Source: Chlorobiota bacterium
GTDB taxonomy: Bacteria; Bacteroidota; Ignavibacteria; Kapaibacteriales; UBA961
Length of the DNA: 64,000 nt
NCBI GenBank assembly: GCA_039810485.1
Contig: JBDHXA010000002.1
Location: 8,597-72,596, forward strand
Direction: 5' to 3'
Shown: piece by piece, positions 3,549-33,731 of the stretch
Numbering within the stretch: the first letter of the stretch is position 1
Layout of the letters: every line of letters starts with the position of its first letter
Notes under the pieces: model-generated
What the model saw: the letters and a program-made list of their open reading frames with translations, nothing else
The model's database searches: none
What the model was told of the DNA's origin: nothing
Position numbers and translations under genes: made by a program

Positions 3549-3675
3549 ATTTATTGTCAGATACTCATATTCACAATTTTATGATATTTCTGTACATACA
3601 GCGTAAATATTTCAAGATTATTTGTATTTTTGCATCGTTATATCATTTTTTATTTATAATATTTCAAATTACTCT

Positions 3676-5409
3676 ATGAGTGTTTTGGTTAATTCGAATT
3701 CGCGTGTATTGGTTCAGGGTATAACCGGTTCCGAAGGCACATTTCACACAAGCCAAATGTTGGAATACGGCACAAATGTAGTTGCCGGAGTTACTCCCGG
3801 TAAATCCGGTTTGCAATACGAAGGAAAAGGCGATGATAAGTTTAACCGTTCAGTTCCGGTTTTTAATACTGTAAGCGAAGCTGTTTCAGCAACTAGAGCG
3901 AATGTTTCAATAATATTTGTTCCTGCGCCTGTGGCTGCCGACGCTATTTTAGAGGCAATTACTGCAAAAATCCCTGTAATTATTTGTATTACAGAAGGAA
4001 TACCGGTAAAGGATATGATTGCCGTAAAAACTGCTCTAAGCCAATCTGAATCACGGCTAATAGGACCGAATTGCCCCGGAATAATTACGCCGGGCGAATG
4101 TAAAATAGGTATTATGCCGGGATTTATCCATGCAGTTGGTTCTATTGGTGTAGTTTCACGAAGCGGCACATTAACGTATGAAGCCGTAAAGCAATTGACT
4201 GATATTGGATTAGGTCAGTCAACATGCATAGGCATAGGCGGCGATCCAATTATCGGCACGCAATTTATTGATGCTATCAAACTATTCAATGCTGATCCTA
4301 AAACAAAAGCAATCGTGATGATTGGCGAAATTGGAGGCAGCGCTGAAGAAGAAGCAGCTGATTACATAAAAGCCAATGTAAGAAAACCAGTTATCGGTTT
4401 TATTGCAGGTAGAACAGCGCCTCCGGGCAGAAGAATGGGACATGCTGGAGCTATAATATCGGGTGGCAAAGGAACTGCCGCAGAAAAAGTAACAGCAATG
4501 CGCAAAGCCGGAATACACGTAGTTGACTCACCTGCAAATATTGGATTGACTGTCGCTCAAGTATTAAGTATTGACGGCAAAAATCGTGCGTCTTCAAATA
4601 TTGAACAACTAACAAATAGCACCTCAACAACATCAACCAAGAAACCGATTGGCCGCCCAAAGGGAACTGTAAAGAACAAATCTGTCCATCATAATTTTTC
4701 ACATTTAAACGACAGTATGGCATCATTCTATGATGAAACTCAAACCGAATTGCAAAATGCGGCTGAAGGCAAATTAAAACGCGGAAGACCAAAAGGTTCG
4801 CTCGGCAAAACTAAAAACAAAAAATCTGCAAAACCTTCTGCCGCATTCGATGAGAACGGCAACCCAATCGTAAAACAACGCGGAAGACCAAAAGGTTCGC
4901 TCGGCAAACATAAAAAAAATACAAAACCTGCTGCCGCATTCGACGATAACGGCAACCCAATCGTAAAACAACGCGGAAGACCAAAAGGTTCGCTCGGCAA
5001 ACATAAAAAAACTGCAAAACCTGCTGCCGCATTCGACGATAACGGCAACCCAATCGTAAAACAACGCGGAAGACCAAAAGGTTCGCTCGGCAAACATAAA
5101 AAAACTGCAAAACCTGCTATCGCATTCGACGATAACGGCAACCCAATCGTAAGACAACGCGGAAGACCCAAAGGTTCGCTCGGCAAACATAAAAAAACTG
5201 CAAAACCTATAATCGCTTTTGATGCTGCAGGCGAGCCAATCATTAGGCAGCGCGGAAGACCAAAAGGTTCGCTTGGCAAACAAAAAGATAATAAATCCAA
5301 GAAACAAAAAGCAGCCAAGCCTGAATCCGCCGAAACATTAGTAAAACAACGCGGAAGACCAAAAGGAGCGAAGAATAAACCGAAACGCAAGAATAATAAA
5401 AGAAGGTAA
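3676..5409 (+). CDS. sucD: Succinyl-CoA synthetase alpha subunit (SucD) fused in frame to a C-terminal tail of about 8 canonical AT-hook motifs (RGRPKGS). No sucC is adjacent.
   Basis: Residues 1 to about 300 match SucD (CoA-binding NAD(P) fold, GITGSEG, phospho-His loop [16 protein letters not shown]). This is followed by a low-complexity linker and repeated [30 protein letters not shown] units, then a KR-rich C-terminus. Likely start is the ATG at 3676 ([15 protein letters not shown]). Confidence 0.8.
4775..5310 (+). repeat. About 6 tandem copies of a 90-bp coding repeat (30-aa AT-hook unit). Copies 3 and 4 are identical at DNA level.
   Basis: Direct reading: the unit aacccaatcgtaaaacaacgcggaagaccaaaaggttcgctcggcaaacataaaaaaactgcaaaacctgctgccgcattcgacgataacggc recurs at about 4861, 4951, 5041 and 5131, with diverged copies at about 4775 and 5221. 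Confidence 0.85.
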
Positions 5410-6738: not shown

Positions 6739-7721
6739 TTGTTGCATTTAGCTTCACTGCAATGACTTTTGCTTCAAAAGCGCAATATACGGCTCCAAGC
6801 ACAGGAAAGCCGCTGCCTAAAAAATATTCAATAAAAGTGGATTATCCATCACATGTAGCCAGCAGCTATGCTTTGACAGAAAAAACAATCGTCAAGCGCG
6901 ATTACCGCGATGATCAGCATAAAAATTATGAACGAGAGGTTACATACTATTTTACGATGGGAAAAGTTGGAGAAACCGACAATGGTTTAACAAAAATATT
7001 ATGCAATATTGATTCGCTTCGTTATACGTTTAAAGAAAACAATAAAACTTTGCATTATGATTCGCAAGAGCCACGAAATTCGAATATCAAGGGAGAATTT
7101 GCCGATCTCACCTATACTCAAGCTCCGCTCAATCATATGTTTGTCATGCTGTTAGACAATAAGAACACAATTGTTGATATAAATGGTAATAATGAAGATA
7201 ACGATATAGAATGGCTGCGAAAGTATATTTTAGTGGATGGCGCTGACGTGATGGACACAGCGCAAAAATTTCTATGGTTGGACGGCATTTCTCGTAATCG
7301 TCTGCAAACTCTCGTTGATTTGAATGGCGGTTTAATCAGAGAAAGAATGTTGGTTGGTGAGGATTCAACATGGTCGCAACCCTCGCTTGTTCGACTTGAC
7401 GGAATTGAATTTTCTGATACGCTCACTGCCAAAGTTGCCACCGTATCACGCGGAGTATATTCAGTGGAAACTATAGTGTCAGGACTAAAAGCTGATAGAG
7501 ATCGAGAACACCGAATGTTTGGCATACCAGCGCCGGCTTCGGTTGACTCAACAATTTCAGGAAGCGGCAAAACAAAGCTTAAGCTTAACAAAGAGGGCTC
7601 TATTCGAGCTTATGACGCTGATTATTCGGCAGTCATACAAGGACATTATCAACACGAAAAATTTGTTCAATCTATAAACACTTCAATACGATGCATCATT
7701 TTGAGTCAATTCGAGTGGTAA
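6732..7721 (+). CDS. Hypothetical secreted protein or lipoprotein, paralog of the next gene.
   Basis: Internal ATG at 6732 followed by signal peptide MLIVAFSFTAMTFASKAQ. Shares a C-terminal ISGSGKT motif and overall architecture with ORF 7691..8773. Confidence 0.5.
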   Translation: MLIVAFSFTAMTFASKAQYTAPSTGKPLPKKYSIKVDYPSHVASSYALTEKTIVKRDYRDDQHKNYEREVTYYFTMGKVGETDNGLTKILCNIDSLRYTFKENNKTLHYDSQEPRNSNIKGEFADLTYTQAPLNHMFVMLLDNKNTIVDINGNNEDNDIEWLRKYILVDGADVMDTAQKFLWLDGISRNRLQTLVDLNGGLIRERMLVGEDSTWSQPSLVRLDGIEFSDTLTAKVATVSRGVYSVETIVSGLKADRDREHRMFGIPAPASVDSTISGSGKTKLKLNKEGSIRAYDADYSAVIQGHYQHEKFVQSINTSIRCIILSQFEW

Positions 7722-8773
7722 AATTAGCCCAATTATCGTTTATTTGCTGTTTTTTAGCAGTAATTTGGAGCTGCGGCGATTCACAGCAGCAAACAATTGA
7801 AAAGCAACTGCCGGAGTCGAACGCAACACAAGTGCCTCATACTTCCGAACTTGCTTCAGCACAGCAGCTTAACGGTAATGAAGCGAAAATAACCTCCTTG
7901 CTTTATCGAGTGCAAGCAGGCGATGTATTCCGATATAAGTTTAGCCAAGATGACAAGTTAAATCAAGACGGAATGAATGCAGAAACAAGTCAGACGCTGT
8001 ATTATACAAAGAAAATTAAATCAATAAAGTCAGACGGCTCAATAGAAATGACTGTGCGGTACGATTCGATTCGCCTTAATAATAATTACCCTGATTTACG
8101 CGACTCAACTAAGCGCATCACAACGTCTTATAACTCATCGAACCCAAAAGACCGCGAAAACAAGGATTTTAATCAATACAATGGCATTCTTGGCGAAGAA
8201 ATCACAGCACTTGTTTCGAAAGACGGACATATTTCTGAAATAAGCGGACTCACTCCTCTCCTTTCAAAAATATTTGGAGATATGAAAGATTCACTCAATC
8301 CAAAGATGCGCGAGCAAGCATTGGAACAAATAAAAGTGCAGTTGTATCAGCGTCCATTGCAACAAGAATATCAAAATTTTCCTGATGGCGGCACAATAGA
8401 TTCTACAAATACTTGGCAGTTCAAAGAGCGATCTCCATTGTCAGGAATTTTTCTTGTAGATAATTCTATAACCTATCATCTCGATGCTGTAAAGCAAGTT
8501 GGCAGTCGAAAAACTGCTTTTATTTCCGCAAAGCTCGTTTCTTCTATTGACAATCCGGCGCAAAAGCAAGGCATAGTAGCTTTTAAACTTAATAAATCGG
8601 AGATTTCAGGCAGCGGCGAAACAATTCTAGACGTCGAAAAGGGATATACAATTCAAAAGAAAAATACAATCCGTACTTTTATAGACGCGACCATGAGCGA
8701 TGCTAAAACCAAACAGTCAAAGCGCGCTGTTCAATCGCTCGTATCCACCATGAAAATTGAGTTAATTAAGTGA
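7691..8773 (+). CDS. Hypothetical lipoprotein, paralog of the previous gene.
   Basis: N-terminal hydrophobic segment ending in a Cys (LAVIWSCGDS). C-terminal ISGSGET motif is shared with the upstream ORF. Confidence 0.5.
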   Translation: MHHFESIRVVKLAQLSFICCFLAVIWSCGDSQQQTIEKQLPESNATQVPHTSELASAQQLNGNEAKITSLLYRVQAGDVFRYKFSQDDKLNQDGMNAETSQTLYYTKKIKSIKSDGSIEMTVRYDSIRLNNNYPDLRDSTKRITTSYNSSNPKDRENKDFNQYNGILGEEITALVSKDGHISEISGLTPLLSKIFGDMKDSLNPKMREQALEQIKVQLYQRPLQQEYQNFPDGGTIDSTNTWQFKERSPLSGIFLVDNSITYHLDAVKQVGSRKTAFISAKLVSSIDNPAQKQGIVAFKLNKSEISGSGETILDVEKGYTIQKKNTIRTFIDATMSDAKTKQSKRAVQSLVSTMKIELIK

Positions 8774-8823
8774 TTTATTTATAGATCTGCTATATACTAC
8801 ACAATTTTTCCCGACAAATCATA

Positions 8824-8875
8824 CGGCTTGCTTTGAATCAAAAAAATGAAATATAGCAAGCCGCTATCTTTTTAT
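8824..8875 (+). terminator. Rho-independent terminator between convergent genes.
   Basis: 9-bp stem cggcttgct / agcaagccg followed by ctatcttttta. Confidence 0.5.
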
Positions 8876-8891
8876 ATCTACAAGGAAGTAT

Positions 8892-9605
8892 TTAGAAATT
8901 CTTGAAAAATAGTTCGTAAATCACTATTGAAGAATCTGATTTTTGAGTGCGCAGATTAGTTGTTACATCTACTGACTCTTGCTTCACCAAAAAATGACCG
9001 ACTGCAAGATAATTCTCAAATAGTATGTCGCGTCTTATGCTGTCAATTTCAGAAGTAAAACGCCTTGACGTTTTTACAGTATAAAATCTGCGCAATTCAG
9101 TATTAAGAGAATAATTTACTGACTCAATTTTTACGTTACTCGATGGCAACGAATCATTAGTTCGCTTAAAACTGGCACCAGATTTAATAGGATCGGCAAG
9201 CAAACAGCGCCCAATAGAATCGGCATAATACGTTGATAGTCGAATCTCTCCATTTTTTTTGAAGGCAAATATGCTGTCATAACTATATGTATTTCCATAT
9301 TTATCAGTACCTCCTGCCAAAATCAAAGTTGCTTGCAAATTAGGAGAAAATTGATACGCCGTATCAGCCATCTTATAGATGAGTGTTCCATTTATAGTTG
9401 TATCACACACGCCATTAGTATCAACCGTGATTTGAACAATCCTAAACATAGTTTGCGAACCATAACGGGACGGCAGCATGAAATCACTCGCATGTAATAC
9501 TTTGTCTTGCTCAAAAAACGATGAGTTTTCAGCACATGATGAAATTATCAACAACAACAAGACAGATAAAAAACGGAAAATTACAATTAATACACTTCGT
9601 TTCAT
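8892..9605 (-). CDS. Hypothetical secreted lipoprotein.
   Basis: Likely start MKRSVLIVIFRFLSVLLLLIISSCAENSS (lipoprotein-type signal). No recognisable domain. Confidence 0.45.
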   Translation of the reverse strand: MKRSVLIVIFRFLSVLLLLIISSCAENSSFFEQDKVLHASDFMLPSRYGSQTMFRIVQITVDTNGVCDTTINGTLIYKMADTAYQFSPNLQATLILAGGTDKYGNTYSYDSIFAFKKNGEIRLSTYYADSIGRCLLADPIKSGASFKRTNDSLPSSNVKIESVNYSLNTELRRFYTVKTSRRFTSEIDSIRRDILFENYLAVGHFLVKQESVDVTTNLRTQKSDSSIVIYELFFKNF

Positions 9606-9733
9606 ACTTTGTGCCACAACCAAAATAATGTGTAAAAGATAATTATTTCTATCCAATCTCTCGAAACTACGATTATTTTTGACTATTACAGTAGTTTTGC
9701 AGAGTATTTGTTTTAATTCTATATCGAACTGCT

Positions 9734-12727
9734 ATGAAATTTTTAGTTACAGCAATCCTTTTCTGTTTTTCTGTTTCTTATTCTCTTTTTAGCCAAGACC
9801 TTACTTGGGTAAAAAACGTGTCGCACGAGATTGGACTCGACTCTGCCAATGGTTCGCGAGTAGTGAATGTTGATATCAACAATGATGATTATCCTGATCT
9901 TGTATGGGGAACAGGCAATGCTGGCAAAAACCATTTTTTCATTTATCTGAATGTGCCAAATCCAGATAAGAACAGTCAAAACAAACGAATATATAAGGAT
10001 TTTACAGAAGAATCGGGAATAAATGCAAATAGAACTCCGGGCAAAGGTCCAAGAATTATTGACGTGGCAGTTTTGGCAGATATTGACAATGATGGCGATG
10101 TTGATTTAGTAACAAGCGTTTATTATCATCGCTGGGAATACTACAATACGCCTGAACTTGACCCCGGAGATAGATCGGAAGTCATGCTGAATGACGGTCA
10201 GGGGCATTTTACTTTAGTGCAAAACAATGGATTGTACAATCTTGATTTACCACAATTTATGACCAAAGCACTTACTAATACGACAGGTATGTCGCTATTT
10301 GATTACGATCTCGACGGGAAACTTGACTTATATATGTCACAATGGTTTCGCGACTATGCAAATGATTCAAAAATGAAAGATATTTTGATGAAAGGCAATG
10401 GCGATGGAACATTTACGTATGTGCCTAACAGCGGCATTAACGTAAGCGAACCAATGTACGGCATGAATGTAACAGATTGGAACAACGACGGTTTGATTGA
10501 TGTTGTAACATCCGCTTACTGTCGTAGCGGAGGCAGTTTATTTATGAACAACGGCAACGGCACTTTCACAGATGTTGCTCCAATAATTGGATACACCGGA
10601 CAGCTTATGGGCGGTGATAATGGTCAGAACCTATGTCAATGGGAGGCACAACCGGCAGATTTCGACAATGACGGCGATATTGATTTGCTTCAAGTTGATG
10701 TGCATGGCGGCTATGATGCAGGCGAAGGGCGCACGCATGTTACCATAAATCAGGGTACAGAAAAAAACTATGCTTTGGAATGGGATATGCCCCGTATTCG
10801 ACGAGATGCTCCTGTTAATTCACATCTTGGCGATCAAGGAGGCCAATGGTTTGATCTTGATAATGATGGATTTCAAGATATCGCCATCGGACAAATGGCA
10901 TATCCGCAGGCGAATTCTGCCGGACAAGAGCGCTTGTATATTTTGCGACAAAATAAGGACGGATATTTTGACGATATTTCCAAAGCAATTGGAATATTTG
11001 CCACAGAAAAAGAAGCTCATTCGATGGAACCGGTAGATTATGATATGGATGGCGATCTTGATTTGATGTTCAGCAGACAAGTGCGTCCTACGGTAGGCAC
11101 TCCTTATATGCAAGTCATGCTTTTGCGCAATGATATTGGCAATAAAAACAATTTTATATCTATAAAGCTAAATCCGCCTTCCGGCGTTAACCGCAATGCC
11201 GTAGGAGCAAGAATTACAGTTCACACCGGCAAAATGCATCAAATTCGAGAAATTTCGGCAGGCGGCGGCCATTTTGCAGGACAGCAGCATTTTATTCAAT
11301 TATTCGGATTAGGCAAATACGAACATGTTGATTCAATCACCGTTCGCTGGCCCAAAAAAGATAATAATATCGCAGTATTTTATAATGTTCCAGTTAATAC
11401 ATTCATCCAAATTGACTCAAATTCGCATTGGGAATTTCTCCCTATTCAATCACAAAAACGCGCTATTATCGGTCTTGACAAACCTTTACTCTCTCTTGGA
11501 GTTGTAGATACTGGAAAAGTCAAAGAAGAACAAATCAATGTTATTAATTATGGCAATTTGAATTTAACAATAGCAACCATCGCACTACAAGATCAAAACA
11601 ATGTTTTTTCATTAACGAATTCCCCACAACTTCCAATAGTGATTGAGCCGGGCAAATCAATTCCTCTTACTGTTACGTTCTCACCCCAAATTCGCAAAGA
11701 ATATCGCGCTAATATTATTGTTCGTTCAGATGCTGAGAACCAATCTGTTAAAAATATACCTATTTCCGGATTCGGAAATTCTCCAAAACCTATTATTGCG
11801 CTTTCTACTCAACGACTTGGTTTTGATAGCGCATGGGTTGGTTTTCCTAAAAATGCTAAGTTTTCAGTAAAAAATATAGGCGAGAAACCATTGACAATTT
11901 CGTCTGTTTCGCTAAAAAATAATAATGATGCAGCATTTTCAATTTCTGGTCAAACGAACTCTATTGAACCCGGCTCATCTTTCGATTATATTCTGAATTT
12001 TACTGCAAAAAGCCGTAAAAACTATAATGATACAATTATAATTGTTTCAAATGCACACAACGATACGCTTAATTCTATTACCGTGTTTAGTACAGTGACA
12101 GGTCCAAATCCAAGAATATCTGTAAGTAGTGCTCTTTTTTTTCCCAAAACAGACGTTGGACAAACATCAACAAAAGAGCTTTCTATTGAAAACACCGGCG
12201 ATTACACTTTAACTATAACTTCAATGAAACCAGAAGAGTATAATGATATTTTCTTACAAAATTCCGAATCTCCATTAATTATTCCTGCAGGACAAAGCAA
12301 AGTTATTAACATTGATTTCAAGCCAAAAGAAGAAGGAAAAACGTATTCAACTAAGTTGGCTATTAACTCCGATGCCGTTAATACACCACAACAAACAGTT
12401 ATGATGCGAGGCGTGGCTGGAAGCACCACCGGCATTGAATGGGATGAAATTATCGCAGATGTAATACCAATAGAAATGAATGTGTTTCCACAACCGGCCA
12501 CAAGTACTGCAACTGTGAAGTTAATTTTGAATAAATCATCAAAATCGAGAGTGTGGATAACAGATGCTTTCGGTCGCCCTGCATTTGAATTTTTTAATAA
12601 AGAAACAGCCGAAGCCGGCGAATACACACTTACAATAGATATATCAAGTTTATCTAGCGGTCAATATAGAATACTAGCTGAAACCAATGGAATTATCAGC
12701 CATCTTCCTTTAACTGTTGCACGTTGA
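9734..12727 (+). CDS. CRTAC1/ASPIC-UnbV family protein with FG-GAP/VCBS-like repeats and three Ig/ASH-like domains, ending in a T9SS C-terminal sorting domain.
   Basis: Signal peptide. Repeated Dx(D/N)xDGxxD calcium-binding FG-GAP motifs. UnbV/ASPIC-like segment (ISAGGGHFAGQQHF...GLGK...VRWP). Three repeats of about 100 aa of Ig-like type. C-terminal roughly 80 aa beta-rich CTD (…GEYTLTIDISSLSSGQYRILAETNG…). Confidence 0.65.
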   Translation: MKFLVTAILFCFSVSYSLFSQDLTWVKNVSHEIGLDSANGSRVVNVDINNDDYPDLVWGTGNAGKNHFFIYLNVPNPDKNSQNKRIYKDFTEESGINANRTPGKGPRIIDVAVLADIDNDGDVDLVTSVYYHRWEYYNTPELDPGDRSEVMLNDGQGHFTLVQNNGLYNLDLPQFMTKALTNTTGMSLFDYDLDGKLDLYMSQWFRDYANDSKMKDILMKGNGDGTFTYVPNSGINVSEPMYGMNVTDWNNDGLIDVVTSAYCRSGGSLFMNNGNGTFTDVAPIIGYTGQLMGGDNGQNLCQWEAQPADFDNDGDIDLLQVDVHGGYDAGEGRTHVTINQGTEKNYALEWDMPRIRRDAPVNSHLGDQGGQWFDLDNDGFQDIAIGQMAYPQANSAGQERLYILRQNKDGYFDDISKAIGIFATEKEAHSMEPVDYDMDGDLDLMFSRQVRPTVGTPYMQVMLLRNDIGNKNNFISIKLNPPSGVNRNAVGARITVHTGKMHQIREISAGGGHFAGQQHFIQLFGLGKYEHVDSITVRWPKKDNNIAVFYNVPVNTFIQIDSNSHWEFLPIQSQKRAIIGLDKPLLSLGVVDTGKVKEEQINVINYGNLNLTIATIALQDQNNVFSLTNSPQLPIVIEPGKSIPLTVTFSPQIRKEYRANIIVRSDAENQSVKNIPISGFGNSPKPIIALSTQRLGFDSAWVGFPKNAKFSVKNIGEKPLTISSVSLKNNNDAAFSISGQTNSIEPGSSFDYILNFTAKSRKNYNDTIIIVSNAHNDTLNSITVFSTVTGPNPRISVSSALFFPKTDVGQTSTKELSIENTGDYTLTITSMKPEEYNDIFLQNSESPLIIPAGQSKVINIDFKPKEEGKTYSTKLAINSDAVNTPQQTVMMRGVAGSTTGIEWDEIIADVIPIEMNVFPQPATSTATVKLILNKSSKSRVWITDAFGRPAFEFFNKETAEAGEYTLTIDISSLSSGQYRILAETNGIISHLPLTVAR

Positions 12728-17935: not shown

Positions 17936-20900
17936 TTAGCCAATGGCGCGATGAATGGCCTCCAATAATTTATCCGATGTATATGGCTTCCCAAGAAACC
18001 ATACATTGTCGCCTTGATCCACGCGATTGCCATTTTGCTTAAAGCCGCTTACAGCAATAATTTTAACCAGCGGGTTGATAGTTTGCAATGCTCTAATTGT
18101 GGCATTTCCATCCATATAGGGCATCATCATATCAGTAATTACAAGAGCTATATAATCCTTTTGCGTGGCATACATAGCCAATGCACTTGCGCCGTCATTT
18201 GCAGTTAGAACAGCATAACCGTTCAATTGCAAGGTTTGCCTTGTTACTTCAAGTATTGCAGATTCGTCGTCAATTACCATAATAAGCTGTCCGTTTCCGC
18301 TATAGTTGCGTTCTGTCGCTTGTTTTTCAGATCTCATTTCTTTCTGAGATACTGGCAAATATACTTTGAAAGTTGATCCCTTTCCAACCTCGCTATATAC
18401 ATTAATAAATCCTCCATGTCCTTTGATAATTGCTAGTGCTGTTGGCAGCCCCATGCCGGTACCTTTTCCGAACTCTTTTGTTGTAAAAAATGGCTCGTAC
18501 AAACGGTCTACAACTGCCGCGCTCATCCCAATTCCTTGATCGGCAACTGATATGACAACATAGTAACCCGGATCTACACCAAATTGCATTTTTGCATATT
18601 GTTCGTCGAGAAAAAGCGACTCAGCCGTAATAGTGAGAGCTCCGCCATTCGGCATTGCGTCGCGCGCATTTACACAAAGGTTCATCATAATTTGATGAAT
18701 CTGAGTGGAATCGGCAAATACTGCAGGCAAATCATCTGAAATTTTACTATAATAAACAATATTTTTTGGAAATACTTCTTTGATTATTCTGCCAATTTCA
18801 TTAATGACATGACTGAGTTGAATAGAGAAACGCTCGCCTTCAATACCACGCGCAAAACCAAGCACTTGCTTAACCATATCAGAGCCGCGATTGACCGAAG
18901 ATTTTAACATGGATAGCAGTACGGCTGATTTTTCATCGGGAAATTTTTTGCTTAATATCTCTAAGGACAGCATTATAGGCGTAAGGATATTATTTAAATC
19001 ATGAGCAATTCCGCCTGCTAAAGTGCCAATACTTTCCAAGCGTTGCGAACGTTGAATTTGTTTTTCTATGCGCTTCTGCTCAGTTACATCGCGCGCAACA
19101 ACCACAATTTGTTGCACTTTGCTCTTAGTTTCATCGAAAACTGGATTGGCAACAGCATCAATAAACCTCGTTTCACCGTCCTTAGTTACTATGCGTGATG
19201 TTGCAAATTGGCTTTCGCCAGTTGACACTACTTGGTGAAGAAGTTTAACAATATGCTCTCTGTCATTAGGATGTTGTGTGTCAAGTGATGATGTTTCAAT
19301 TGCGTTACCATATATTTTTTGCAGCGAAGGACTAATATATAATCTCTTACCCTCTGTGTCAATAACGCTGATATAATCCGTAGTATTTTCTGCAATAAGA
19401 CGAAATTGTTCTTCAGTTTTGCGCAATGCTTCTTCGGCAATTTTACGAGTAGTAATATTCATTACAGTCCCTACCATTTTAACAGGTGTTCCCGTTTCAT
19501 CATATTCGGCGCTTCCATTGCTAGCCATCCACTGCGGATTATCTTGTAAAGAATATTTGCTTCGATATTCAACAGAAAGTATTGTACGCTCTTTTAGCGA
19601 AATTGATAATGCTCTGCGAACCATTGGAACATCATCTGGATGAACTGTATTAGCTATAGCATCTTTAATAGGAAGGATATGATCATTTTTATTTATTCTA
19701 AAAATATCATAACAGCGCTCCGACCATTCAACAGTATCGGTTTCAACATTCCATTCCCAAACTCCCATTCCTGCAATTTCGAGTGCAAAATCCAAACGCC
19801 GCTGGCTTTCTACAAATGCTTGCTGGGCAGTAATTCTCTCGGTTATATCTCGTATCAGCAGCAATACTTTATCATCGGCAAGAAATATGGAACGAGCTTC
19901 TGAATGCATGACGATATTATTTATAAGCAAGCTGTATTCGAATTTTTCTAATTTCCTGGTTTGCAATGTCTTGCGTATAGTTTCTTTAGTTTGCTCAGCA
20001 ACATTAGTTGGCAATATTTCACTAATATTTTTTTGAAGGAAATTACTTGGTGAATCGTAAAGAATTGTATCGGAAGGCGCATGAAAATCTAGAAATACTC
20101 CATCGGAATTTAATTCGAACATAAGGTCAGGAATTGCTTCTACAATTGCTCGATTTCTTTCTTCGCTGACTCTGAGGGCTTCTTCTGCCTGTTTCGCTTC
20201 CGTCATATTTGAGAATAATGCAACAAAATACTCTTTTTCAGGGCTGAATAACGATAAACTATACCATCCGTTTGTTTGAGGCAAATACGTTTCAAATCGT
20301 TCTTGTATGCCTGTTATCGCCACTCGCGCATAACGTTGCAATATTTCAGGATTCTGCTCAAGAACTCCCGGAATTACTTCATTAAACGTTTTTCCTACAA
20401 TATTGTCTATCCCAAACAATGATTTAAACGAAGGATTAACTGCTATATATTCAAAATCAATAGGTTTACCATCGCTATCATATTTAATCCGACAAAGCGC
20501 ATACCCCTCAAGTAAATTCTCAAATAATGCATTGTACCGCTCACCGCTTTTACGTAGTGACTGCTCCTTTTGTAATAATTCAGATTTATCGCGAACTATT
20601 ATAGAAAATCCTGTAACTTTTTTTGCATCATCAGTAATTGGAGATGCGCTGATAGACACTGCCAGACGCGCGCCATTGCGATGAATGCGTTCTGTTTCAA
20701 AATTTGTGATGCTTTTGCCGCTTAGAAGAATATTGCCGATTTGTTGAACTTCTTCAATCTTGTCTGCAGGTATTATGAATGATGTTGGCTGCCCAATTGC
20801 TTCTTTCTCTGTGTAACCATAAATTCTCTCGGCACCTTTGTTCCAAGTGAGTATTCTCTTTTCGGTATCTGTGCTGATAATTCCATCAGTTGAAGATTCA

Positions 20901-22183
20901 ACTATTGCCGCAAGGCGCTGCATCATTATTCTGCTTTGTTTACGGTTAGTTACATCACGAAAAATAATATTTATCAGATTTTGTCCTTCTACTACGGTTT
21001 TGGACAGAGCGCCTTCTATTATTATTTCTCTTCCGTCCGAGCAAACTCCTCGCATTTCTCTAAGAATATCATCTTTAATTTCTTGAGTTTTATATTTATT
21101 CACATATACTTGATGAGTCGCTCGTCTATTTTCCGGCAATAACACGTCAAGTTTTTTCCCATACAAATCAACTTCTTTGTAGCCAAATATTTCTTCTGCC
21201 GATGGATTTACAAGTATAATATTTTGGTCTTCATCTATGCTTATTATGCCACCAATGGATGAATCTATGATGCTTTTTATTCGACGCTCGCTCGTTTGCA
21301 GCTTTTCGACATGGTTGAGAGAGCGAGCATTATAAAAGAGCAGGATGCTGAATACAATCATTATGAGCGATGCTGTTACTAACGGTTCACTATTAATATC
21401 TAATAAGCCAGAATTCATATATACTATTTCCAAACAAAGAGGAAATATTACAGCTACAGGAAGCATCAGTCGTAGTGTTCGACCTGCTGATGTATTTTCT
21501 GTCAGGATTTTCATAAGACCTATTTTAGGTCGGCTAATAAATGCTCCTATGCCTATTAACATTAGTGCAATTGAAGCATTGAAAGGAATGGGTGGAGAAT
21601 TTTTACTAAAAACACTAATTTCCGTTTGTAAAAAATATCCAGAAACAGCAGTTATACCCAAAAAGAATACTGAAAGGAAGAGTATTTGGCTCTTATAAGA
21701 ATGCAATCGGAATATTCCAATGCTCATTAATAGCAGAGATGACGCCGTCAAGGCAGACATGCTGCCAGACAATACTATATTCTTTATAGTGTCGTATTTA
21801 ATATAAATGTCATCAATCCCTAATTCCAAATTGAAAATTATTTCTAACAACGTAATAAAACAATATATTAGAACAGTTATTGAAATTAGGTTTGCAAAGT
21901 AATTAGCATATTTGTTGCTCGGTATAAATATTTTGATAATATATGCTATGCTAATGAGAAAAAATCCAATTGAAGCGTTAAATCGTATTGGATGTGCGCC
22001 TAATCCAAAATTCACAAGAAAAGGAATATCCCAAAGCCAGCCAACAATTCCAAATAGTCCGATAATTAATGAGCATAAAATTAGCGACGCGCACAACCGT
22101 CGCAGAATCGTAAAAGTTCTCTCTGTAACAGTTAGCAAATCTTTCATATTTCTTCTTGAAATGGTTGGTAAATTTACGCACAA
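17936..22183 (-). CDS. Hybrid sensor histidine kinase: polytopic N-terminal membrane sensor, about 6 PAS/PAC domains, HisKA, HATPase_c and a C-terminal receiver.
   Basis: About 8 N-terminal TM helices. Repeated PAS signatures. H-box IAHDLNNILTPI. G-boxes (DQGIGM, GTGMGL). C-terminal REC (VIDDES...ITDMMMPYMDG...K). Confidence 0.85.
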   Translation of the reverse strand: MCVNLPTISRRNMKDLLTVTERTFTILRRLCASLILCSLIIGLFGIVGWLWDIPFLVNFGLGAHPIRFNASIGFFLISIAYIIKIFIPSNKYANYFANLISITVLIYCFITLLEIIFNLELGIDDIYIKYDTIKNIVLSGSMSALTASSLLLMSIGIFRLHSYKSQILFLSVFFLGITAVSGYFLQTEISVFSKNSPPIPFNASIALMLIGIGAFISRPKIGLMKILTENTSAGRTLRLMLPVAVIFPLCLEIVYMNSGLLDINSEPLVTASLIMIVFSILLFYNARSLNHVEKLQTSERRIKSIIDSSIGGIISIDEDQNIILVNPSAEEIFGYKEVDLYGKKLDVLLPENRRATHQVYVNKYKTQEIKDDILREMRGVCSDGREIIIEGALSKTVVEGQNLINIIFRDVTNRKQSRIMMQRLAAIVESSTDGIISTDTEKRILTWNKGAERIYGYTEKEAIGQPTSFIIPADKIEEVQQIGNILLSGKSITNFETERIHRNGARLAVSISASPITDDAKKVTGFSIIVRDKSELLQKEQSLRKSGERYNALFENLLEGYALCRIKYDSDGKPIDFEYIAVNPSFKSLFGIDNIVGKTFNEVIPGVLEQNPEILQRYARVAITGIQERFETYLPQTNGWYSLSLFSPEKEYFVALFSNMTEAKQAEEALRVSEERNRAIVEAIPDLMFELNSDGVFLDFHAPSDTILYDSPSNFLQKNISEILPTNVAEQTKETIRKTLQTRKLEKFEYSLLINNIVMHSEARSIFLADDKVLLLIRDITERITAQQAFVESQRRLDFALEIAGMGVWEWNVETDTVEWSERCYDIFRINKNDHILPIKDAIANTVHPDDVPMVRRALSISLKERTILSVEYRSKYSLQDNPQWMASNGSAEYDETGTPVKMVGTVMNITTRKIAEEALRKTEEQFRLIAENTTDYISVIDTEGKRLYISPSLQKIYGNAIETSSLDTQHPNDREHIVKLLHQVVSTGESQFATSRIVTKDGETRFIDAVANPVFDETKSKVQQIVVVARDVTEQKRIEKQIQRSQRLESIGTLAGGIAHDLNNILTPIMLSLEILSKKFPDEKSAVLLSMLKSSVNRGSDMVKQVLGFARGIEGERFSIQLSHVINEIGRIIKEVFPKNIVYYSKISDDLPAVFADSTQIHQIMMNLCVNARDAMPNGGALTITAESLFLDEQYAKMQFGVDPGYYVVISVADQGIGMSAAVVDRLYEPFFTTKEFGKGTGMGLPTALAIIKGHGGFINVYSEVGKGSTFKVYLPVSQKEMRSEKQATERNYSGNGQLIMVIDDESAILEVTRQTLQLNGYAVLTANDGASALAMYATQKDYIALVITDMMMPYMDGNATIRALQTINPLVKIIAVSGFKQNGNRVDQGDNVWFLGKPYTSDKLLEAIHRAIG

Positions 22184-22603
22184 ATTTTTGCGGTGAATAG
22201 CTCTGCTCTTTACTTCATCTTTAGTTCAGCAAATTTACAAAAAAAACATTTCGATTAGATTGAATACACAACTTATTTTACTACGACAACGAGTGTAATT
22301 AAAAATCAGTTCAAAACGAAGTTGTCAAAAAATTTGCCCGTTGCTTCAACTCATCAACATAAGCAATTTATTATTTAAGCACTTAGCATTTATTCCAAAT
22401 ATAAATTTGTTAAATTTTGTTTATCCCAACAGATTTGCTAAAATTTTTTCCTATTGAATGATTGGTGATTACTTTACTTAGTTATAATAAAACAATGAGT
22501 ACAGCTTTTCGTTGTAAATAATTAGTTGCAGATTTGAATTGCATTAATACCTTTGAATGAAAAATTCAGTTAAACCATCTACACCAATCTAAATAATTTT
22601 TTA

Positions 22604-23548
22604 ATGGAAGAAAGTAAATATATTCCCATAAGACCTGCTTTTTTAGGTGTTCACATTTTTGAAGATGTGCCGCTTGACGAATTACGAAATTACATTGATT
22701 GGACGCCGTTTTTTTTGTCATGGGAATTGCGAGGCAAATATCCAGCTATCTTTGATGACGCGCAATGCGGAGATGCAGCACAGAAGCTGTTTGAAGACGC
22801 CAATCAGATTCTCAATAAAATTATAAACGAAAAACTATTGACATCAAAAGCCGTTTGCGGTTTTTTTTCTGCAAATAGCGTCAATCACGATGATATTGAA
22901 ATATATACAGATGATAAAAGAAATGAAGTTCTGATAACTCTTAATATGCTACGTCAACAAATTAAACGAGGGCAAAATCTTCCGAATCTTTGCTTGTCAG
23001 ATTTTATTGCACCAAAAGAAACAGGCATTTCTGACTATATTGGCGCATTTGTGGTTACAGCCGGTATAGGCACAATCGAATTATGCAAAAAATACGAAGA
23101 GTTGCATGATGATTATTCGGCAATACTAGTCAAAGCATTGGCAGATCGTCTTGCAGAAGCAGCCGCAGAGTGGCTGCATGAACAGGTTCGCAGAAAGCTT
23201 TGGGGATTTGCTTCGAATGAAATACTAACAAATGAAGAACGCATAGCCGAGCAATATCAAGGAATTCGACCGGCGCCAGGTTATCCTGCATGTCCAGACC
23301 ACACAGAAAAGAAAAAATTATTCGATTTGCTCGATGCTACAAACCACACAAATGTCATATTAACAGAAGGCTATGCAATGACGCCTGCTGCATCAGTAAG
23401 CGGATGGTACTTTGCTCATCCGAGTTCTCATTATTTTGGAGTTGGCAAAATAACTCGTGAGCAACTAGATGATTACGCACAAAGGAAAAGTTGGACAAAT
23501 GAAGAAGCGGAACACTGGCTTGCAGCAAATTTGGAATACAACAGCTAA
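22604..23548 (+). CDS. Stand-alone methionine synthase reactivation domain (AdoMet-binding, Met_synt_B12). It corresponds to roughly E. coli MetH residues 900-1227 only.
   Basis: Near-collinear match to the MetH C-terminus: RNYIDWTPFF, GKYP, DDIEIY, DYIGAFVVTAG, HDDYSAILVKALADRLAEA, QGIRPAPGYPACPDHTEK, ASVSGWYFAHP. Confidence 0.85.
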   Translation: MEESKYIPIRPAFLGVHIFEDVPLDELRNYIDWTPFFLSWELRGKYPAIFDDAQCGDAAQKLFEDANQILNKIINEKLLTSKAVCGFFSANSVNHDDIEIYTDDKRNEVLITLNMLRQQIKRGQNLPNLCLSDFIAPKETGISDYIGAFVVTAGIGTIELCKKYEELHDDYSAILVKALADRLAEAAAEWLHEQVRRKLWGFASNEILTNEERIAEQYQGIRPAPGYPACPDHTEKKKLFDLLDATNHTNVILTEGYAMTPAASVSGWYFAHPSSHYFGVGKITREQLDDYAQRKSWTNEEAEHWLAANLEYNS

Positions 23549-23710
23549 ATTGTTTTGCATATCAATTCCAATATTTTTATTGATTATCTGACTTGTAAAT
23601 CGCTGAGTATCACAGTAGAATGGCAAAGTCAAGAGTAAAGCGAAAAAATTCAATCATTCTGTTGCTAATAAGCAACATACATCAATAATTAATCATAAAG
23701 GAATAATTCA

Positions 23711-24055
23711 ATGGCAATATATATAACTTCCGATTGTATTAACTGCGGCGCTTGCGAGCCGGAATGCCCAAACACTGCTATTTATGAAGCAGGATCGCCT
23801 TGGCAGCTAAATGGTAAAGAATATGATGATTCAACTTCGCCTGGCGGATATAAACGAGATTTTTGGTCTGCTGAATACTATTACATAGTTCCGGACAAAT
23901 GCACAGAATGTAAAACTTACTATGACGAGCCGCAATGTGCGGCAGTTTGCCCTGTAGATTGTTGCTTGCCTGATCCTTTAAACGTTGAAACTGACGAACA
24001 GTTAATAGCAAAAGTAAAATATTTAGACAAAATTGAACCCGGGCGCAGACGTTAA
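23711..24055 (+). CDS. 2x[4Fe-4S] ferredoxin.
   Basis: CxxCxxCxxxCP (CINCGACEPECP) and a second cluster CTECKTY...CAAVCPVDC. Confidence 0.8.
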   Translation: MAIYITSDCINCGACEPECPNTAIYEAGSPWQLNGKEYDDSTSPGGYKRDFWSAEYYYIVPDKCTECKTYYDEPQCAAVCPVDCCLPDPLNVETDEQLIAKVKYLDKIEPGRRR

Positions 24056-24254
24056 TAAAAGGAGAATGGATATATTATATGCATTAGGAGCAGTAATTGT
24101 CAATAAATTGAAAGTAATTTTTTCGGACTTCGCTAATACTTTTATTGACGATTATTTTTTTACGCAATTTGGAACAACGACCTAATAAACCTGTAAAATA
24201 GATGAAGATTAATATCGTCACGCAAGTTATATTACATTTTATTATCAAATATAC

Positions 24255-25319
24255 ATGCCCTCGCAATTTTACCCTATTCGCATAAAAGACATTAGGTCTG
24301 AAACTGAAAACTCGGCTTCCATAATCTTCGACATACCTGCGGAACTTCAAGATACATTTCGCTATAAGTCCGGTCAATATATAACTTTAAAAGTGTCAAT
24401 TGACGGTAAAAGCTATAATCGAGCATATTCTCTTGGCAGCAGTCCCTTTGTAGATCAATATCCATTCGTTACTATTAAGAAAACAGAATATGGATTTGTA
24501 TCACGATATATCATAGAGAAGCTTAAAATCGGAGATACTGTCCATTTAATGCCGCCTCTAGGAAATTTTACCATAGAAACAAACTCAAACTCGCAACGAT
24601 TGATTATTATGTTTGGCGGTGGCAGCGGGATCATTCCCTTGTTTTCGCTTACAAAAACAATAATTTCTCAAGAACCTCGCAGCAACATAGTGCTATACTA
24701 TGCTAACCGTAACGATAAAAATGTTATTTACGAACTAGAACTGAAAAAATTAGCAGAGCAATCTGGAGCCAGATTTCGTATTGTTTATTTTTTTGAAACG
24801 CCAAGCGATCGAATTGATGCTCATACAGGCAACATTACTGTAGAATATATGCACAATTTGCTCGCTGAAATTTACAACAAGGATTCACATTCCGCACAAT
24901 TCTTCATTTGCGGACCTGCGCAAATGATGCAATTAATTGAAAATGTGCTTGCTTCGGAGGGTGTAGCCGGATCACAAATTCATCGTGAACAATTTGTAGC
25001 TCAACACGATCCTCCTGCCGAACTTGCTCCCGCTCCGCCGAAAGAGCGAGAAATATGCGTTTTTTTATACGGCAAAAAATATCAGATATCTGTTGCAACC
25101 GGCGCAACAATACTTGAAGCCGCTATAGATCAAAATCTGGATCCGCCTTATGCATGTCAAGTTGCAGCTTGTTGCACATGTCGTGCTAAACTGCTTACCG
25201 GCAATGTTCACATGGATAATAGAGAAGCATTAACAGACGAAGAGCTTGATGATGGATATATTCTAACATGTCAATCACATCCCATTAGTGATGATGTAGT
25301 CGTTGATTATGATCAATAA
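24255..25319 (+). CDS. FNR-type FAD/NAD(P)-binding oxidoreductase with C-terminal plant-type 2Fe-2S ferredoxin domain (PaaE/PaaK-like reductase).
   Basis: RxYS FAD motif (RYKSGQYITLKV), GGGSGIIP NAD(P) motif, C-terminal Cys cluster (CQVAACCTCRAKL...LTCQSHP). Confidence 0.75.
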   Translation: MPSQFYPIRIKDIRSETENSASIIFDIPAELQDTFRYKSGQYITLKVSIDGKSYNRAYSLGSSPFVDQYPFVTIKKTEYGFVSRYIIEKLKIGDTVHLMPPLGNFTIETNSNSQRLIIMFGGGSGIIPLFSLTKTIISQEPRSNIVLYYANRNDKNVIYELELKKLAEQSGARFRIVYFFETPSDRIDAHTGNITVEYMHNLLAEIYNKDSHSAQFFICGPAQMMQLIENVLASEGVAGSQIHREQFVAQHDPPAELAPAPPKEREICVFLYGKKYQISVATGATILEAAIDQNLDPPYACQVAACCTCRAKLLTGNVHMDNREALTDEELDDGYILTCQSHPISDDVVVDYDQ

Positions 25320-32636: not shown

Positions 32637-33731
32637 TTATTGTAAAACAGCATCAGCTCCGTAGTCTTCAATTTTACGAACTTTTACAGCAATATCTTCC
32701 CCGGTTTCATTTTTATTTATAGAAAATTCTACTTTATCGCCAACATGTAATTGGCTAAAATCAGAATTTGTCAACTTGCTGAAGTGAAAGAAAAGATTGT
32801 TCGGCGGATATTTGATAAATCCATATCCATTTTTCAAACTAAGTATATAGCTTATAATGACTGTGTTGCTTGACAAATTTGATTTTTTTTGATCGAAATT
32901 CGCTTCATTAATAAATAAGTTCTCATCATGCAAAATGTTGGATGATTGAGAAAATGACAACTTATTAGAAGTTAAATTGTCGTCTTCACTCGACATATCA
33001 GAATCTATATCAAATATGCTGTCATATTTTTCTGCTTCAAAATTACCAATTACTTCTTTTGCGTCGGATTTAATAGATCCTTGTACAAATATGTTTTTTA
33101 TAATACTTGCATATTCTTCATCAGGATTTTCTATAATTTTATGCATGGCAATAGGATAACTGGCTTCGTTAAGTAATTCATGCGATGTTCGTGTATAAAC
33201 TGTATTGCCTTCTTCATTGATAAAATCAAATTCCCAGCTTAACACCATCATTCTGCTTCCCAATGAATTTACTTTCCGAATCAACGGCGCATAATCTCCG
33301 TCTGAAGCGATAAGTACTACAACATCAAAATGTTTTAGCACACATAATTCATACGCTTCTAACGCAAGCCAAACGTCAATTCCTTTCTCCATTTTTTTCC
33401 CGCTCCACGAGCTTCTCAAGGGAAGGTAATGTGTTACAACACCTTCACTCATTAATATATCGTCAAAAACACGGTCATAGTATATCTGATTCTCAGTTGC
33501 TTCACCTGCATAAAGCCGACCTTTGAATAAGTGACAGTCGACAATCTGACAATTTCGCACATCACGATTTTCTTCATCTGCAACAACATGACGAATAAAA
33601 TCATGCAAGCCAGAAATTCGAATTCTGCTATGTCGCGGATGATTGAAATAGTAATAATTGCTTACATGTTGGAAAAAACTTCCATCATAGAACACTCCAA
33701 TTTTAACTAAAGAAGCAGAATTATGCAACAC
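32637..33731 (-). CDS. NYN (LabA/PIN-like RNase) domain protein fused to a C-terminal cold-shock domain by a Ser/Asp/Asn-rich linker.
   Basis: N-terminal IGVFYDGSFF...DVVVLIASDGDYAPL (NYN acidic residues). C-terminal NGYGFIKYPP...GDKVEFSI (CSD RNP-like motifs). Confidence 0.7.
   Translation of the reverse strand: MLHNSASLVKIGVFYDGSFFQHVSNYYYFNHPRHSRIRISGLHDFIRHVVADEENRDVRNCQIVDCHLFKGRLYAGEATENQIYYDRVFDDILMSEGVVTHYLPLRSSWSGKKMEKGIDVWLALEAYELCVLKHFDVVVLIASDGDYAPLIRKVNSLGSRMMVLSWEFDFINEEGNTVYTRTSHELLNEASYPIAMHKIIENPDEEYASIIKNIFVQGSIKSDAKEVIGNFEAEKYDSIFDIDSDMSSEDDNLTSNKLSFSQSSNILHDENLFINEANFDQKKSNLSSNTVIISYILSLKNGYGFIKYPPNNLFFHFSKLTNSDFSQLHVGDKVEFSINKNETGEDIAVKVRKIEDYGADAVLQ

Follow-up and report, generated by a model that had tools for sequence, protein, structure and literature searches.

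The reactivation domain of cobalamin-dependent methionine synthase (MetH), Pfam family PF02965, can be a separate protein according to the literature. For instance, the MetH of Bacteroides thetaiotaomicron is split between two separate genes, where BT0249 is the reactivation domain and BT0180 contains the other four domains (GapMind paper). In E. coli, the electron donor docks on the activation domain. For MetH enzymes without PF02965, RamA-like corrinoid reductive activases (PF14574/DUF4445) serve as a separately encoded alternative. In Thermotoga maritima, the MetH protein TM0268 is said to need a second protein, TM0269, for its reactivation, as reportedly found by Huang et al. in 2007. TM0269 lies directly downstream of TM0268, the MetH core gene.

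We analysed a stretch of DNA of 64 kb (the window) from an Ignavibacteria/Kapaibacteria-like MAG. It contains a gene for a stand-alone MetH activation domain (ORF1), which is followed by genes for a ferredoxin (ORF2) and a reductase (ORF3):

22184..22603, no strand: divergent AT-rich intergenic region of 420 bp, between a sensor kinase gene (- strand) and ORF1
22604..23548, + strand: ORF1, gene for a stand-alone MetH activation / AdoMet-binding (reactivation) domain, 314 aa, PF02965
23711..24055, + strand: ORF2, gene for a YfhL-family (Alvin-type) 2x[4Fe-4S] ferredoxin, 114 aa, NF033683
24094..24161, + strand: AT-rich hairpin followed by T7, terminator-like, detected as inverted repeat and by folding
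24255..25319, + strand: ORF3, gene for an FNR-fold NAD(P)H:flavin reductase with a C-terminal plant-type 2Fe-2S domain, 354 aa

With a probability of roughly three in four, we think that a cobalamin-dependent methionine synthase is split in this organism, with ORF1 as its free-standing reactivation subunit, and that the neighbouring ferredoxin and reductase genes are independent of it.

The first-pass annotation had described the 314-aa ORF as essentially nothing but the AdoMet-binding module of MetH, and we find this description to be correct. ORF1 matches PF02965 (Met_synt_B12) with an E-value of 7.6e-126 and 419.5 bits (cut-off 25), and this match, which spans positions 2-272 of the 273 in the profile, is the single domain of the protein. 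When compared to the NCBIfam MetH model NF007024 (1234 positions), ORF1 aligns to positions 924-1232 only and thus represents the C-terminal MetH module alone. Its scores are below the cut-offs for whole MetH proteins, with 466 vs 1497 bits for NF007024 and 308 vs 1011 bits for TIGR02082. With the E. coli activation domain (residues 897-1227, structure 1MSK), ORF1 shares 55% identity across some 300 residues (query residues 11-313), and the AdoMet-binding residues are all shared. D946, E1097, R1134-Y1139 (RPAPGY, the AdoMet-binding RxxxGY motif), H1145 and Y1189 of E. coli are identical in ORF1. The same AdoMet-binding or otherwise conserved residues are also identical in 62 of 62 proteins with a length of 300-330 aa, which we took as the set of stand-alone candidates. 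The analysis thereby confirmed ORF1 as a MetH reactivation module that is intact and stands alone.

When comparing ORF1 to the described systems, we find a likeness to BT0249. Both consist of PF02965 only, both are encoded away from a MetH core in a lineage of the FCB group, and both are presumed to act by reactivation in trans. This likeness is one of architecture, and the host is an Ignavibacteria/Kapaibacteria-like MAG and not a Bacteroides. TM0269 is similar to ORF1 in principle, as the reactivation module is a separate polypeptide in trans; however, TM0269 adjoins its core gene whereas the ORF1 gene is unlinked. Since no T. maritima chain is among the PDB sequence matches of ORF1, TM0269 is at best distant from ORF1 in sequence. 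The activation domain of E. coli is fused to the B12 domain whereas ORF1 is unfused. The position of E. coli K959, which we take to be the site of the cross-link to flavodoxin, is a lysine in ORF1 as well. Furthermore, E. coli uses flavodoxin and Fpr, whereas the neighbours of ORF1 are a 2x[4Fe-4S] ferredoxin and a three-domain FNR with a 2Fe-2S domain, and these are not conserved neighbours. The RamA-like activases, lastly, are not homologous to ORF1, depend on ATP and have a ferredoxin domain of their own; nothing of this kind was found in the 64-kb window. A split MetH with a separate reactivation gene is thus already known, and the locus adds an Ignavibacteria/Kapaibacteria-like example. 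Its significance beyond annotation is small. Tools for pathway reconstruction must nevertheless join the pieces of a split MetH, as they would otherwise report a methionine auxotrophy that does not exist, or an "incomplete MetH".

A short protein that matches only the last module of a long one could also be what is left of a full-length metH that was duplicated or broken and then decayed, or it could be an artefact of the assembly. That such cases exist is illustrated by a protein of 303 aa from the scan of reference genomes (L011), which appeared to be stand-alone and proved to be a frameshifted full-length metH; we rejected it because all MetH modules are present upstream in broken frames. 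For ORF1, by contrast, there is no MetH-like sequence upstream in any frame, and the gene starts with ATG after the AT-rich spacer of 420 bp. Of 84 columns with at least 95% conservation in fused MetH, ORF1 retains 81. Because the activation domain is conserved to this extent, we rejected the alternative, named in the first-pass annotation among the findings that would refute its proposal, that ORF1 is a decayed duplicate. Stand-alone proteins of the same length from many samples furthermore form a clade together with ORF1, and altogether we regard a remnant or an artefact as extremely improbable.

This clade is well populated. We found dozens of proteins of 300-330 aa that contain only PF02965 and have 57-70% identity, some of them on contigs of up to 1.58 Mb. 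In a neighbour-joining tree, ORF1 is placed inside a clade of 56 tips, all of which are stand-alone proteins (56/56). The mean pairwise identity is 0.66 among the stand-alone proteins and 0.60 among the fused domains, which indicates that the stand-alone proteins are constrained as much as the fused ones. Stand-alone activation domains of the ORF1 type are thus a coherent and well-conserved clade. Scans of genomes and metagenomes with the activation domain mainly returned full-length MetH (about 1,220-1,400 aa) or MetH of about 880-900 aa; they contributed few further stand-alone loci and served as a negative control for linkage to the ferredoxin and reductase genes.

We next consider the protein on which ORF1 may act. 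It had been noted that no homocysteine, folate or B12-binding modules are nearby, and our searches agree with this. A tblastn search of the 64-kb window, for which the query was a full-length Ignavibacteria MetH cut to residues 1-900, gave nothing at E <= 0.01, and Pfam scans of 35 ORFs in the window detected no S-methyl_trans, Pterin_bind or B12-binding domain. Likewise, none of the stand-alone loci that we fetched contains a MetH core. These observations would also fit a function outside of MetH, where ORF1, in genomes that may lack a MetH core, serves another corrinoid protein (a different B12-dependent methyltransferase) or fulfils some other role that depends on AdoMet. The genomic contexts of the stand-alone genes, which are variable and unrelated to methionine metabolism, point in the same direction. 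However, ORF1 shares 55-62% identity with the activation domains of bona fide fused MetH proteins and has kept the near-invariant positions (81/84), which speaks for an unchanged partner surface and unchanged chemistry. In addition, the one documented case of the ORF1 architecture is paired with a four-domain MetH. We thus consider a function outside of MetH to be unlikely.

Trans-acting reactivation of a split MetH, as proposed in the first-pass annotation, is in our opinion the best reading of a window without a core, given the documented precedents. The target of ORF1 is most likely a MetH core whose gene is located in another part of the genome, and on which ORF1 would act in trans. We infer that such a core exists, that the action is in trans and which electron donor is used; the partner is proposed by analogy because the search covered the 64-kb window, out of a contig of 99 kb. 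In such a split enzyme, the ORF1 protein would bind AdoMet and would dock in trans to the B12-binding domain of the core in its uncapped state. The core would comprise the homocysteine, folate, cap and B12 modules. Once oxidation has turned the cofactor into cob(II)alamin, ORF1 would present AdoMet for reductive remethylation, with the electron probably coming from whichever low-potential carrier the cell uses.

The two genes that follow ORF1 on the same strand were identified as the first-pass annotation had read them, namely as a 2x[4Fe-4S] ferredoxin and as an FNR-fold reductase with its own 2Fe-2S domain. The ferredoxin passes the NCBIfam YfhL model NF033683 (95.2 bits, cut-off 86), also has matches to Fer4 families, and contains both cysteine motifs (CxxCxxCxxxCP and CxxCx8CxxxCP, as read from the sequence). 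Between the cluster motifs there is an insert of about 25-30 aa, due to which the match to NF033683 is found in two stretches. The reductase contains the Pfam domains FAD_binding_6, NAD_binding_1 and Fer2 within 24255-25319. The profile matches of the three ORFs are strong and well outside of what chance would give. The layout of FAD, NAD and C-terminal 2Fe-2S domains is shared with PaaE (TIGR02160), the reductase of phenylacetyl-CoA epoxidase, whose model aligns with ORF3 from end to end. As the score of 296.8 bits is below the cut-off of 420.8, and as there are no PaaABCD-type proteins among the window ORFs scanned, we rejected an assignment as PaaE and call the protein PaaE-like only.

Together with ORF1, these genes had been proposed to form a dedicated cassette for the reductive reactivation of corrinoids, and a lack of co-conservation of the three genes had been named as one of the findings that would refute this proposal. 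We observed that the three genes are not co-conserved. Seven independent stand-alone lineages with 65-70% identity (P0002, P0003, P0004, P0005, P0008, P0016 and P0021) all have different neighbours, and neither a ferredoxin nor an FNR-type reductase is among them (0/7). More generally, a homologue of ORF2 or ORF3 is present in the flanks (up to 10 kb) of none of 175 loci with an activation domain, stand-alone or fused. The homologues of the two redox genes are instead found in unrelated contexts. A ferredoxin from another organism that is 84% identical to ORF2 has a histidine kinase on one side and an amidohydrolase on the other, and neither an activation domain nor an FNR is nearby. The closest homologues of the reductase (65% identity) are located beside THAP4-heme-bd and TIM genes or after NifU_N and DUF59 genes, and they never adjoin an activation domain or a ferredoxin of the ORF2 type. 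Since the three genes are not co-conserved, the reading as a dedicated cassette fails. A conserved or dedicated cassette is not supported, and the ferredoxin and the PaaE-like reductase are probably independent redox genes that are neighbours of ORF1 by chance.

An electron chain might still have been assembled in this organism only, in which case the absence of conservation would be compatible with a lineage-specific link. Electrons would then pass from NAD(P)H to the FAD and the 2Fe-2S cluster of the reductase, further to the 2x[4Fe-4S] ferredoxin and finally to cob(II)alamin, with the ferredoxin in the place of flavodoxin. In line with this, the three genes are adjacent on one strand, and a consensus scan detected no terminator between the genes of the activation domain and the ferredoxin. 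A scan of 35 window ORFs gave no flavodoxin domain, and in the absence of flavodoxin, reduction by a ferredoxin would be plausible chemically. In addition, the activation domain of E. coli is a docking site for an electron donor. However, co-conservation is absent at all of the seven lineages and 175 loci described above, and in the assembly of the closest relative (GCA_026932225.1), the genes for the activation domain (P0002) and the reductase (P0125) are on different contigs and thus unlinked. The chain is also doubtful on general chemical grounds. In reductases of the ORF3 class, electrons go straight from the plant-type 2Fe-2S domain of the reductase itself to a terminal oxygenase. Such a 2Fe-2S cluster typically has a much higher potential than Alvin-type 2x[4Fe-4S] ferredoxins; therefore, the proposed chain would run uphill. 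We give little credence to such a lineage-specific cassette. The more particular scenario of a young operon, in which the reactivation subunit has recently come to lie beside the ferredoxin and the FNR and the ferredoxin replaces flavodoxin in the reduction of cob(II)alamin, appears slightly less probable still. If true, it would constitute a flavodoxin-independent, dedicated electron supply for the repair of MetH. The adjacency of genes in one genome is no evidence for an electron-transfer cassette, and the locus gives no special handle on the MetH reductant in bacteria without flavodoxin.

The spacing of the genes and the signals between them also bear on a lineage-specific cassette. The spacers are long, with 162 bp between ORF1 and the ferredoxin gene and 199 bp between the ferredoxin and reductase genes. 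They rank 24th and 27th among the 31 same-strand gaps of the window and are thus in the upper quartile (median 65 bp). Ahead of the reductase gene, 39 nt past the stop codon of the ferredoxin gene, a hairpin begins that has 14-nt arms (24094-24107 and 24141-24154) with 93% complementarity and is followed by T7 at 24155-24161. Folded alone, it has an energy of -15.6 kcal/mol (z = -2.77), a stability that is reached by 3 of 200 shuffles. Both the long spacers and this terminator-like element speak against such a cassette. The consensus terminator scan, whose sole match is inside ORF1, missed the hairpin because its stem is AT-rich and its loop is large; the same scan gave no clear terminator between ORF1 and the ferredoxin gene. 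Folds of the whole spacers are no more stable than those of shuffles, and it is just the hairpin taken by itself that is conspicuous.

Upstream of ORF1, the first-pass annotation had suggested to search the region 22184-22603 for a cobalamin or SAM riboswitch. No relevant covariance-model match was obtained there: no Rfam family reaches its gathering score anywhere in the 64-kb window, and a permissive search (E <= 10) of 22100-24300 gave two irrelevant chance matches and nothing else. Promoter-like sites occur at chance level (16 found, 13.8 expected), and the Bacteroidetes-type motif TAnnTTTG is not clearly enriched (90 vs 75.8 expected, with 6 of 100 shuffles as high).

Some flanking genes in other genomes resembled parts of the locus at first sight. 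At one locus (L096), a thioesterase-kinase-ferredoxin order is similar to that in the window; we did not accept it as synteny, as its thioesterase has no detectable homology to that of the window and its kinase is similar only in the way of kinases in general. A partial ORF downstream of the closest homologue (L187), considered as a ferredoxin, was by eye the zinc-finger N-terminus of an ISL3-type transposase. The 91-aa ORF that follows P0005 is a small membrane protein.

Three neighbouring ORFs on the same strand were found where the first-pass annotation had placed them:

22604-23548, + strand: ORF1, the MetH activation domain alone, 314 aa
23711-24055, + strand: ORF2, a YfhL-family 2x[4Fe-4S] ferredoxin, 114 aa
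24255-25319, + strand: ORF3, a reductase with FAD_binding_6, NAD_binding_1 and a C-terminal Fer2 domain, 354 aa

When comparing ORF1 to the NCBIfam models of full-length MetH, only the last ~310 positions are aligned (924-1232 of 1234), and the score of 466 bits is far below the whole-protein cut-off of 1497 bits. ORF2 is above the curated cut-off for its family (95.2 vs 86 bits); the model matches in two stretches because an insert of ~25-30 aa separates the two cluster-binding motifs. This insert is also present in P0123, a homologue with 84% identity. The best NCBIfam match of ORF3 is PaaE with 296.8 bits, below the cut-off of 420.8, and we thus consider it PaaE-like, not PaaE.

ORF1 and the crystallised E. 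coli activation domain (1MSK) align over their whole length (query 11-313, chain 30-329, E = 1.5e-107) at 55% identity. The AdoMet-domain residues D946, E1097, RPAPGY (1134-1139), H1145 and Y1189 (E. coli numbering) are all kept, as are 81 of the 84 near-invariant columns, defined as at least 95% conserved among 157 fused domains, i.e. activation domains inside a longer MetH. Thus, ORF1 is not a decayed copy. Furthermore, dozens of proteins in the protein database consist of this domain (PF02965) only, with 300-330 aa and 57-70% identity. They come from metagenome-assembled genomes of Ignavibacteria, Kapaibacteria and Bacteroidota, and some of their contigs span 100 kb to 1.58 Mb. When 62 stand-alone-size proteins and the 157 fused domains were placed in a neighbour-joining tree, ORF1 fell inside a clade of 56 tips that are all stand-alone (56/56). 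The mean pairwise identity is 0.66 for stand-alone proteins vs 0.60 for fused domains, from which we conclude that constraint is not relaxed.

One apparent stand-alone example from a reference genome (locus L011) was discarded as a frameshifted full-length metH. At 7234-10912 of this locus (Ignavibacteriaceae MFD03551.bin.3.181, a reference MAG), the gene is split over many frames, which looks like assembly indel errors that mimic a stand-alone activation domain. The MetH ORFs in four further Ignavibacteria loci (L008, L040, L056, L072) are 1,376-1,404 aa long, ~150-180 aa above the usual ~1,225 aa.

The claim that no other MetH module lies nearby was borne out for the window by both approaches: tblastn detected no MetH core at E <= 0.01 when the query was the first 900 residues of a full-length MetH from the Ignavibacteria locus L026, and Pfam scans of 35 window ORFs detected no Hcy-methyltransferase, pterin-binding or B12-binding domain. 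That ORF1 is a pseudogene or an assembly artefact is extremely improbable, and effectively refuted by the missing core, the all-stand-alone clade and the conserved columns. The same Pfam scans found no flavodoxin. The genes around the three ORFs have no connection with the metabolism of methionine or corrinoids:

17936-22183, - strand: hybrid sensor kinase, 1,415 aa, divergent from ORF1
GyrB (identified by reading the translation)
thioesterase
response regulator with HD domain
MotB
acyltransferase
glutamate dehydrogenase
HPPD-like dioxygenase

The sensor kinase has a multi-pass membrane N-terminus, apparently several PAS-type repeats (judged from the translation), a kinase core and a receiver. 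An AT-rich spacer of 420 bp separates it from ORF1. The riboswitch search that the first-pass annotation had suggested was negative, both at Rfam gathering thresholds across the whole window and at E <= 10 in 22100-24300.

The simplest reading is that ORF1 serves as reactivation subunit in a split MetH. ORF1 would bind AdoMet and, when the cofactor is at cob(II)alamin, dock onto the uncapped B12 domain of a core that another gene encodes and that comprises the Hcy, folate, cap and B12 modules; it would then give the methyl group for reductive remethylation. For the source organism, we infer that a core gene exists, that ORF1 acts in trans and which reductant is used. In Thermotoga maritima, Huang et al. 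2007 reportedly found that reactivation of TM0268 depends on TM0269. MetH is similarly split in B. thetaiotaomicron, where BT0249 is the reactivation domain and BT0180 contains the other four domains (GapMind), and PF02965 "in other bacteria can be a separate protein" (Price et al.). In E. coli, the activation domain is also needed for the interaction between electron donor and enzyme. This part of the earlier interpretation is reasonable but describes an arrangement that is already known. ORF1 might instead serve a different corrinoid enzyme or have another AdoMet-dependent role, but this is unlikely given that its MetH-type residues are completely conserved.

The first-pass annotation had further proposed that the three ORFs form a dedicated cassette for the reductive reactivation of corrinoids. 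To compare neighbourhoods, we used seven different stand-alone homologues with 65-70% identity:

P0002: MiaB-like radical-SAM enzyme, O-methyltransferase, ISL3 transposases
P0003: divergent MiaB-like gene; downstream, an apparent ISL3 transposase N-terminus (by eye)
P0004: cupin upstream, hydrolase downstream
P0005: DUF4437 gene upstream, small membrane protein downstream
P0008: HTH regulator, GSDH-like dehydrogenase
P0016: hydrolase, aldehyde dehydrogenase
P0021: TonB-type outer-membrane proteins

A ferredoxin or FNR-type reductase is found beside none of the seven. Similarly, tblastn detected no homologue of ORF2 or ORF3 in the flanks (up to 10 kb) of 175 activation-domain loci (17 stand-alone, 153 fused, 5 ambiguous). 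The reverse test agrees: the 84%-identical ferredoxin is flanked by a histidine kinase and an amidohydrolase. Of the two closest reductase homologues (both 65%), one sits between the genes of a THAP4-like haem-binding protein and triose-phosphate isomerase, and the other follows NifU and DUF59 genes. GCA_026932225.1 contains both the closest activation-domain homologue (P0002) and, among named reductase homologues, the closest one (P0125), but on different contigs (JAIXKX010000084 and JAIXKX010000082, respectively) and with unrelated neighbours. The three genes are therefore not co-conserved, which the first-pass annotation had itself named as grounds for rejecting the cassette.

Signals between the genes were also inspected. 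The spacers of 162 bp (ORF1-ORF2) and 199 bp (ORF2-ORF3) rank 24th and 27th of the 31 same-strand gaps in the window (median 65 bp). An AT-rich hairpin followed by T7 begins 39 nt past the ferredoxin stop codon (-15.6 kcal/mol, z = -2.77); consensus scans were otherwise uninformative. Co-transcription of ORF1 to ORF3 is possible, but nothing here supports it.

Reductases with FAD, NAD and plant-type 2Fe-2S domains normally pass electrons straight to an oxygenase partner, and their 2Fe-2S potential is typically far above that of 2x[4Fe-4S] ferredoxins of the Alvin type. Electron flow from reductase via ferredoxin to cob(II)alamin would thus run uphill, which further argues against the proposed wiring. 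The ferredoxin alone, reduced by another enzyme, is a plausible donor. The cassette could be specific to this lineage and recently assembled; we consider this improbable, as the adjacency in a single genome is the sole positive evidence. A young lineage-specific operon in which the ferredoxin replaces flavodoxin is quite improbable.

The closest reductase homologue P0124 is encoded on the same strand as NifU_N and DUF59/FeS_assembly_P genes and directly 3' of them (L104-L106; e.g. L104 6985-9068), which hints that the ORF3 subfamily may be tied to the assembly of Fe-S clusters rather than to an oxygenase. The sole recurring neighbour seen of the stand-alone gene is a MiaB/RimO-like gene (UPF0004, Radical_SAM, TRAM) that adjoins it in two lineages (P0002, P0003) and is ~6.5 kb off in P0016 (L081-L086, L187, L094); this may simply be residual synteny. 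The ISL3 transposase genes flank the stand-alone gene in L081, and the apparent ISL3 N-terminus is 3' of it in L187. In the P0004 and P0005 lineages, the small cupin/DUF4437 gene is directly upstream on the same strand, with gaps of 7-17 bp:

L093 7490-7993, same strand as the stand-alone gene: cupin/DUF4437 gene
L188 7384-7866, same strand: cupin/DUF4437 gene
L189 1654-2148, same strand: cupin/DUF4437 gene

Elsewhere in the window, 32637-33731 (- strand) encodes an N-terminal NYN nuclease-like and a C-terminal cold-shock domain with a long low-complexity linker between them. At 3622-5409 (+ strand), the succinyl-CoA ligase alpha subunit (CoA_binding, Ligase_CoA) has a C-terminal tail of ~290 aa that is unusual for a TCA-cycle enzyme. 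The tail is a 93-bp tandem repeat (5.4 copies, 91% matches, array 4778-5286), which encodes an AT-hook-like GRPKG motif.
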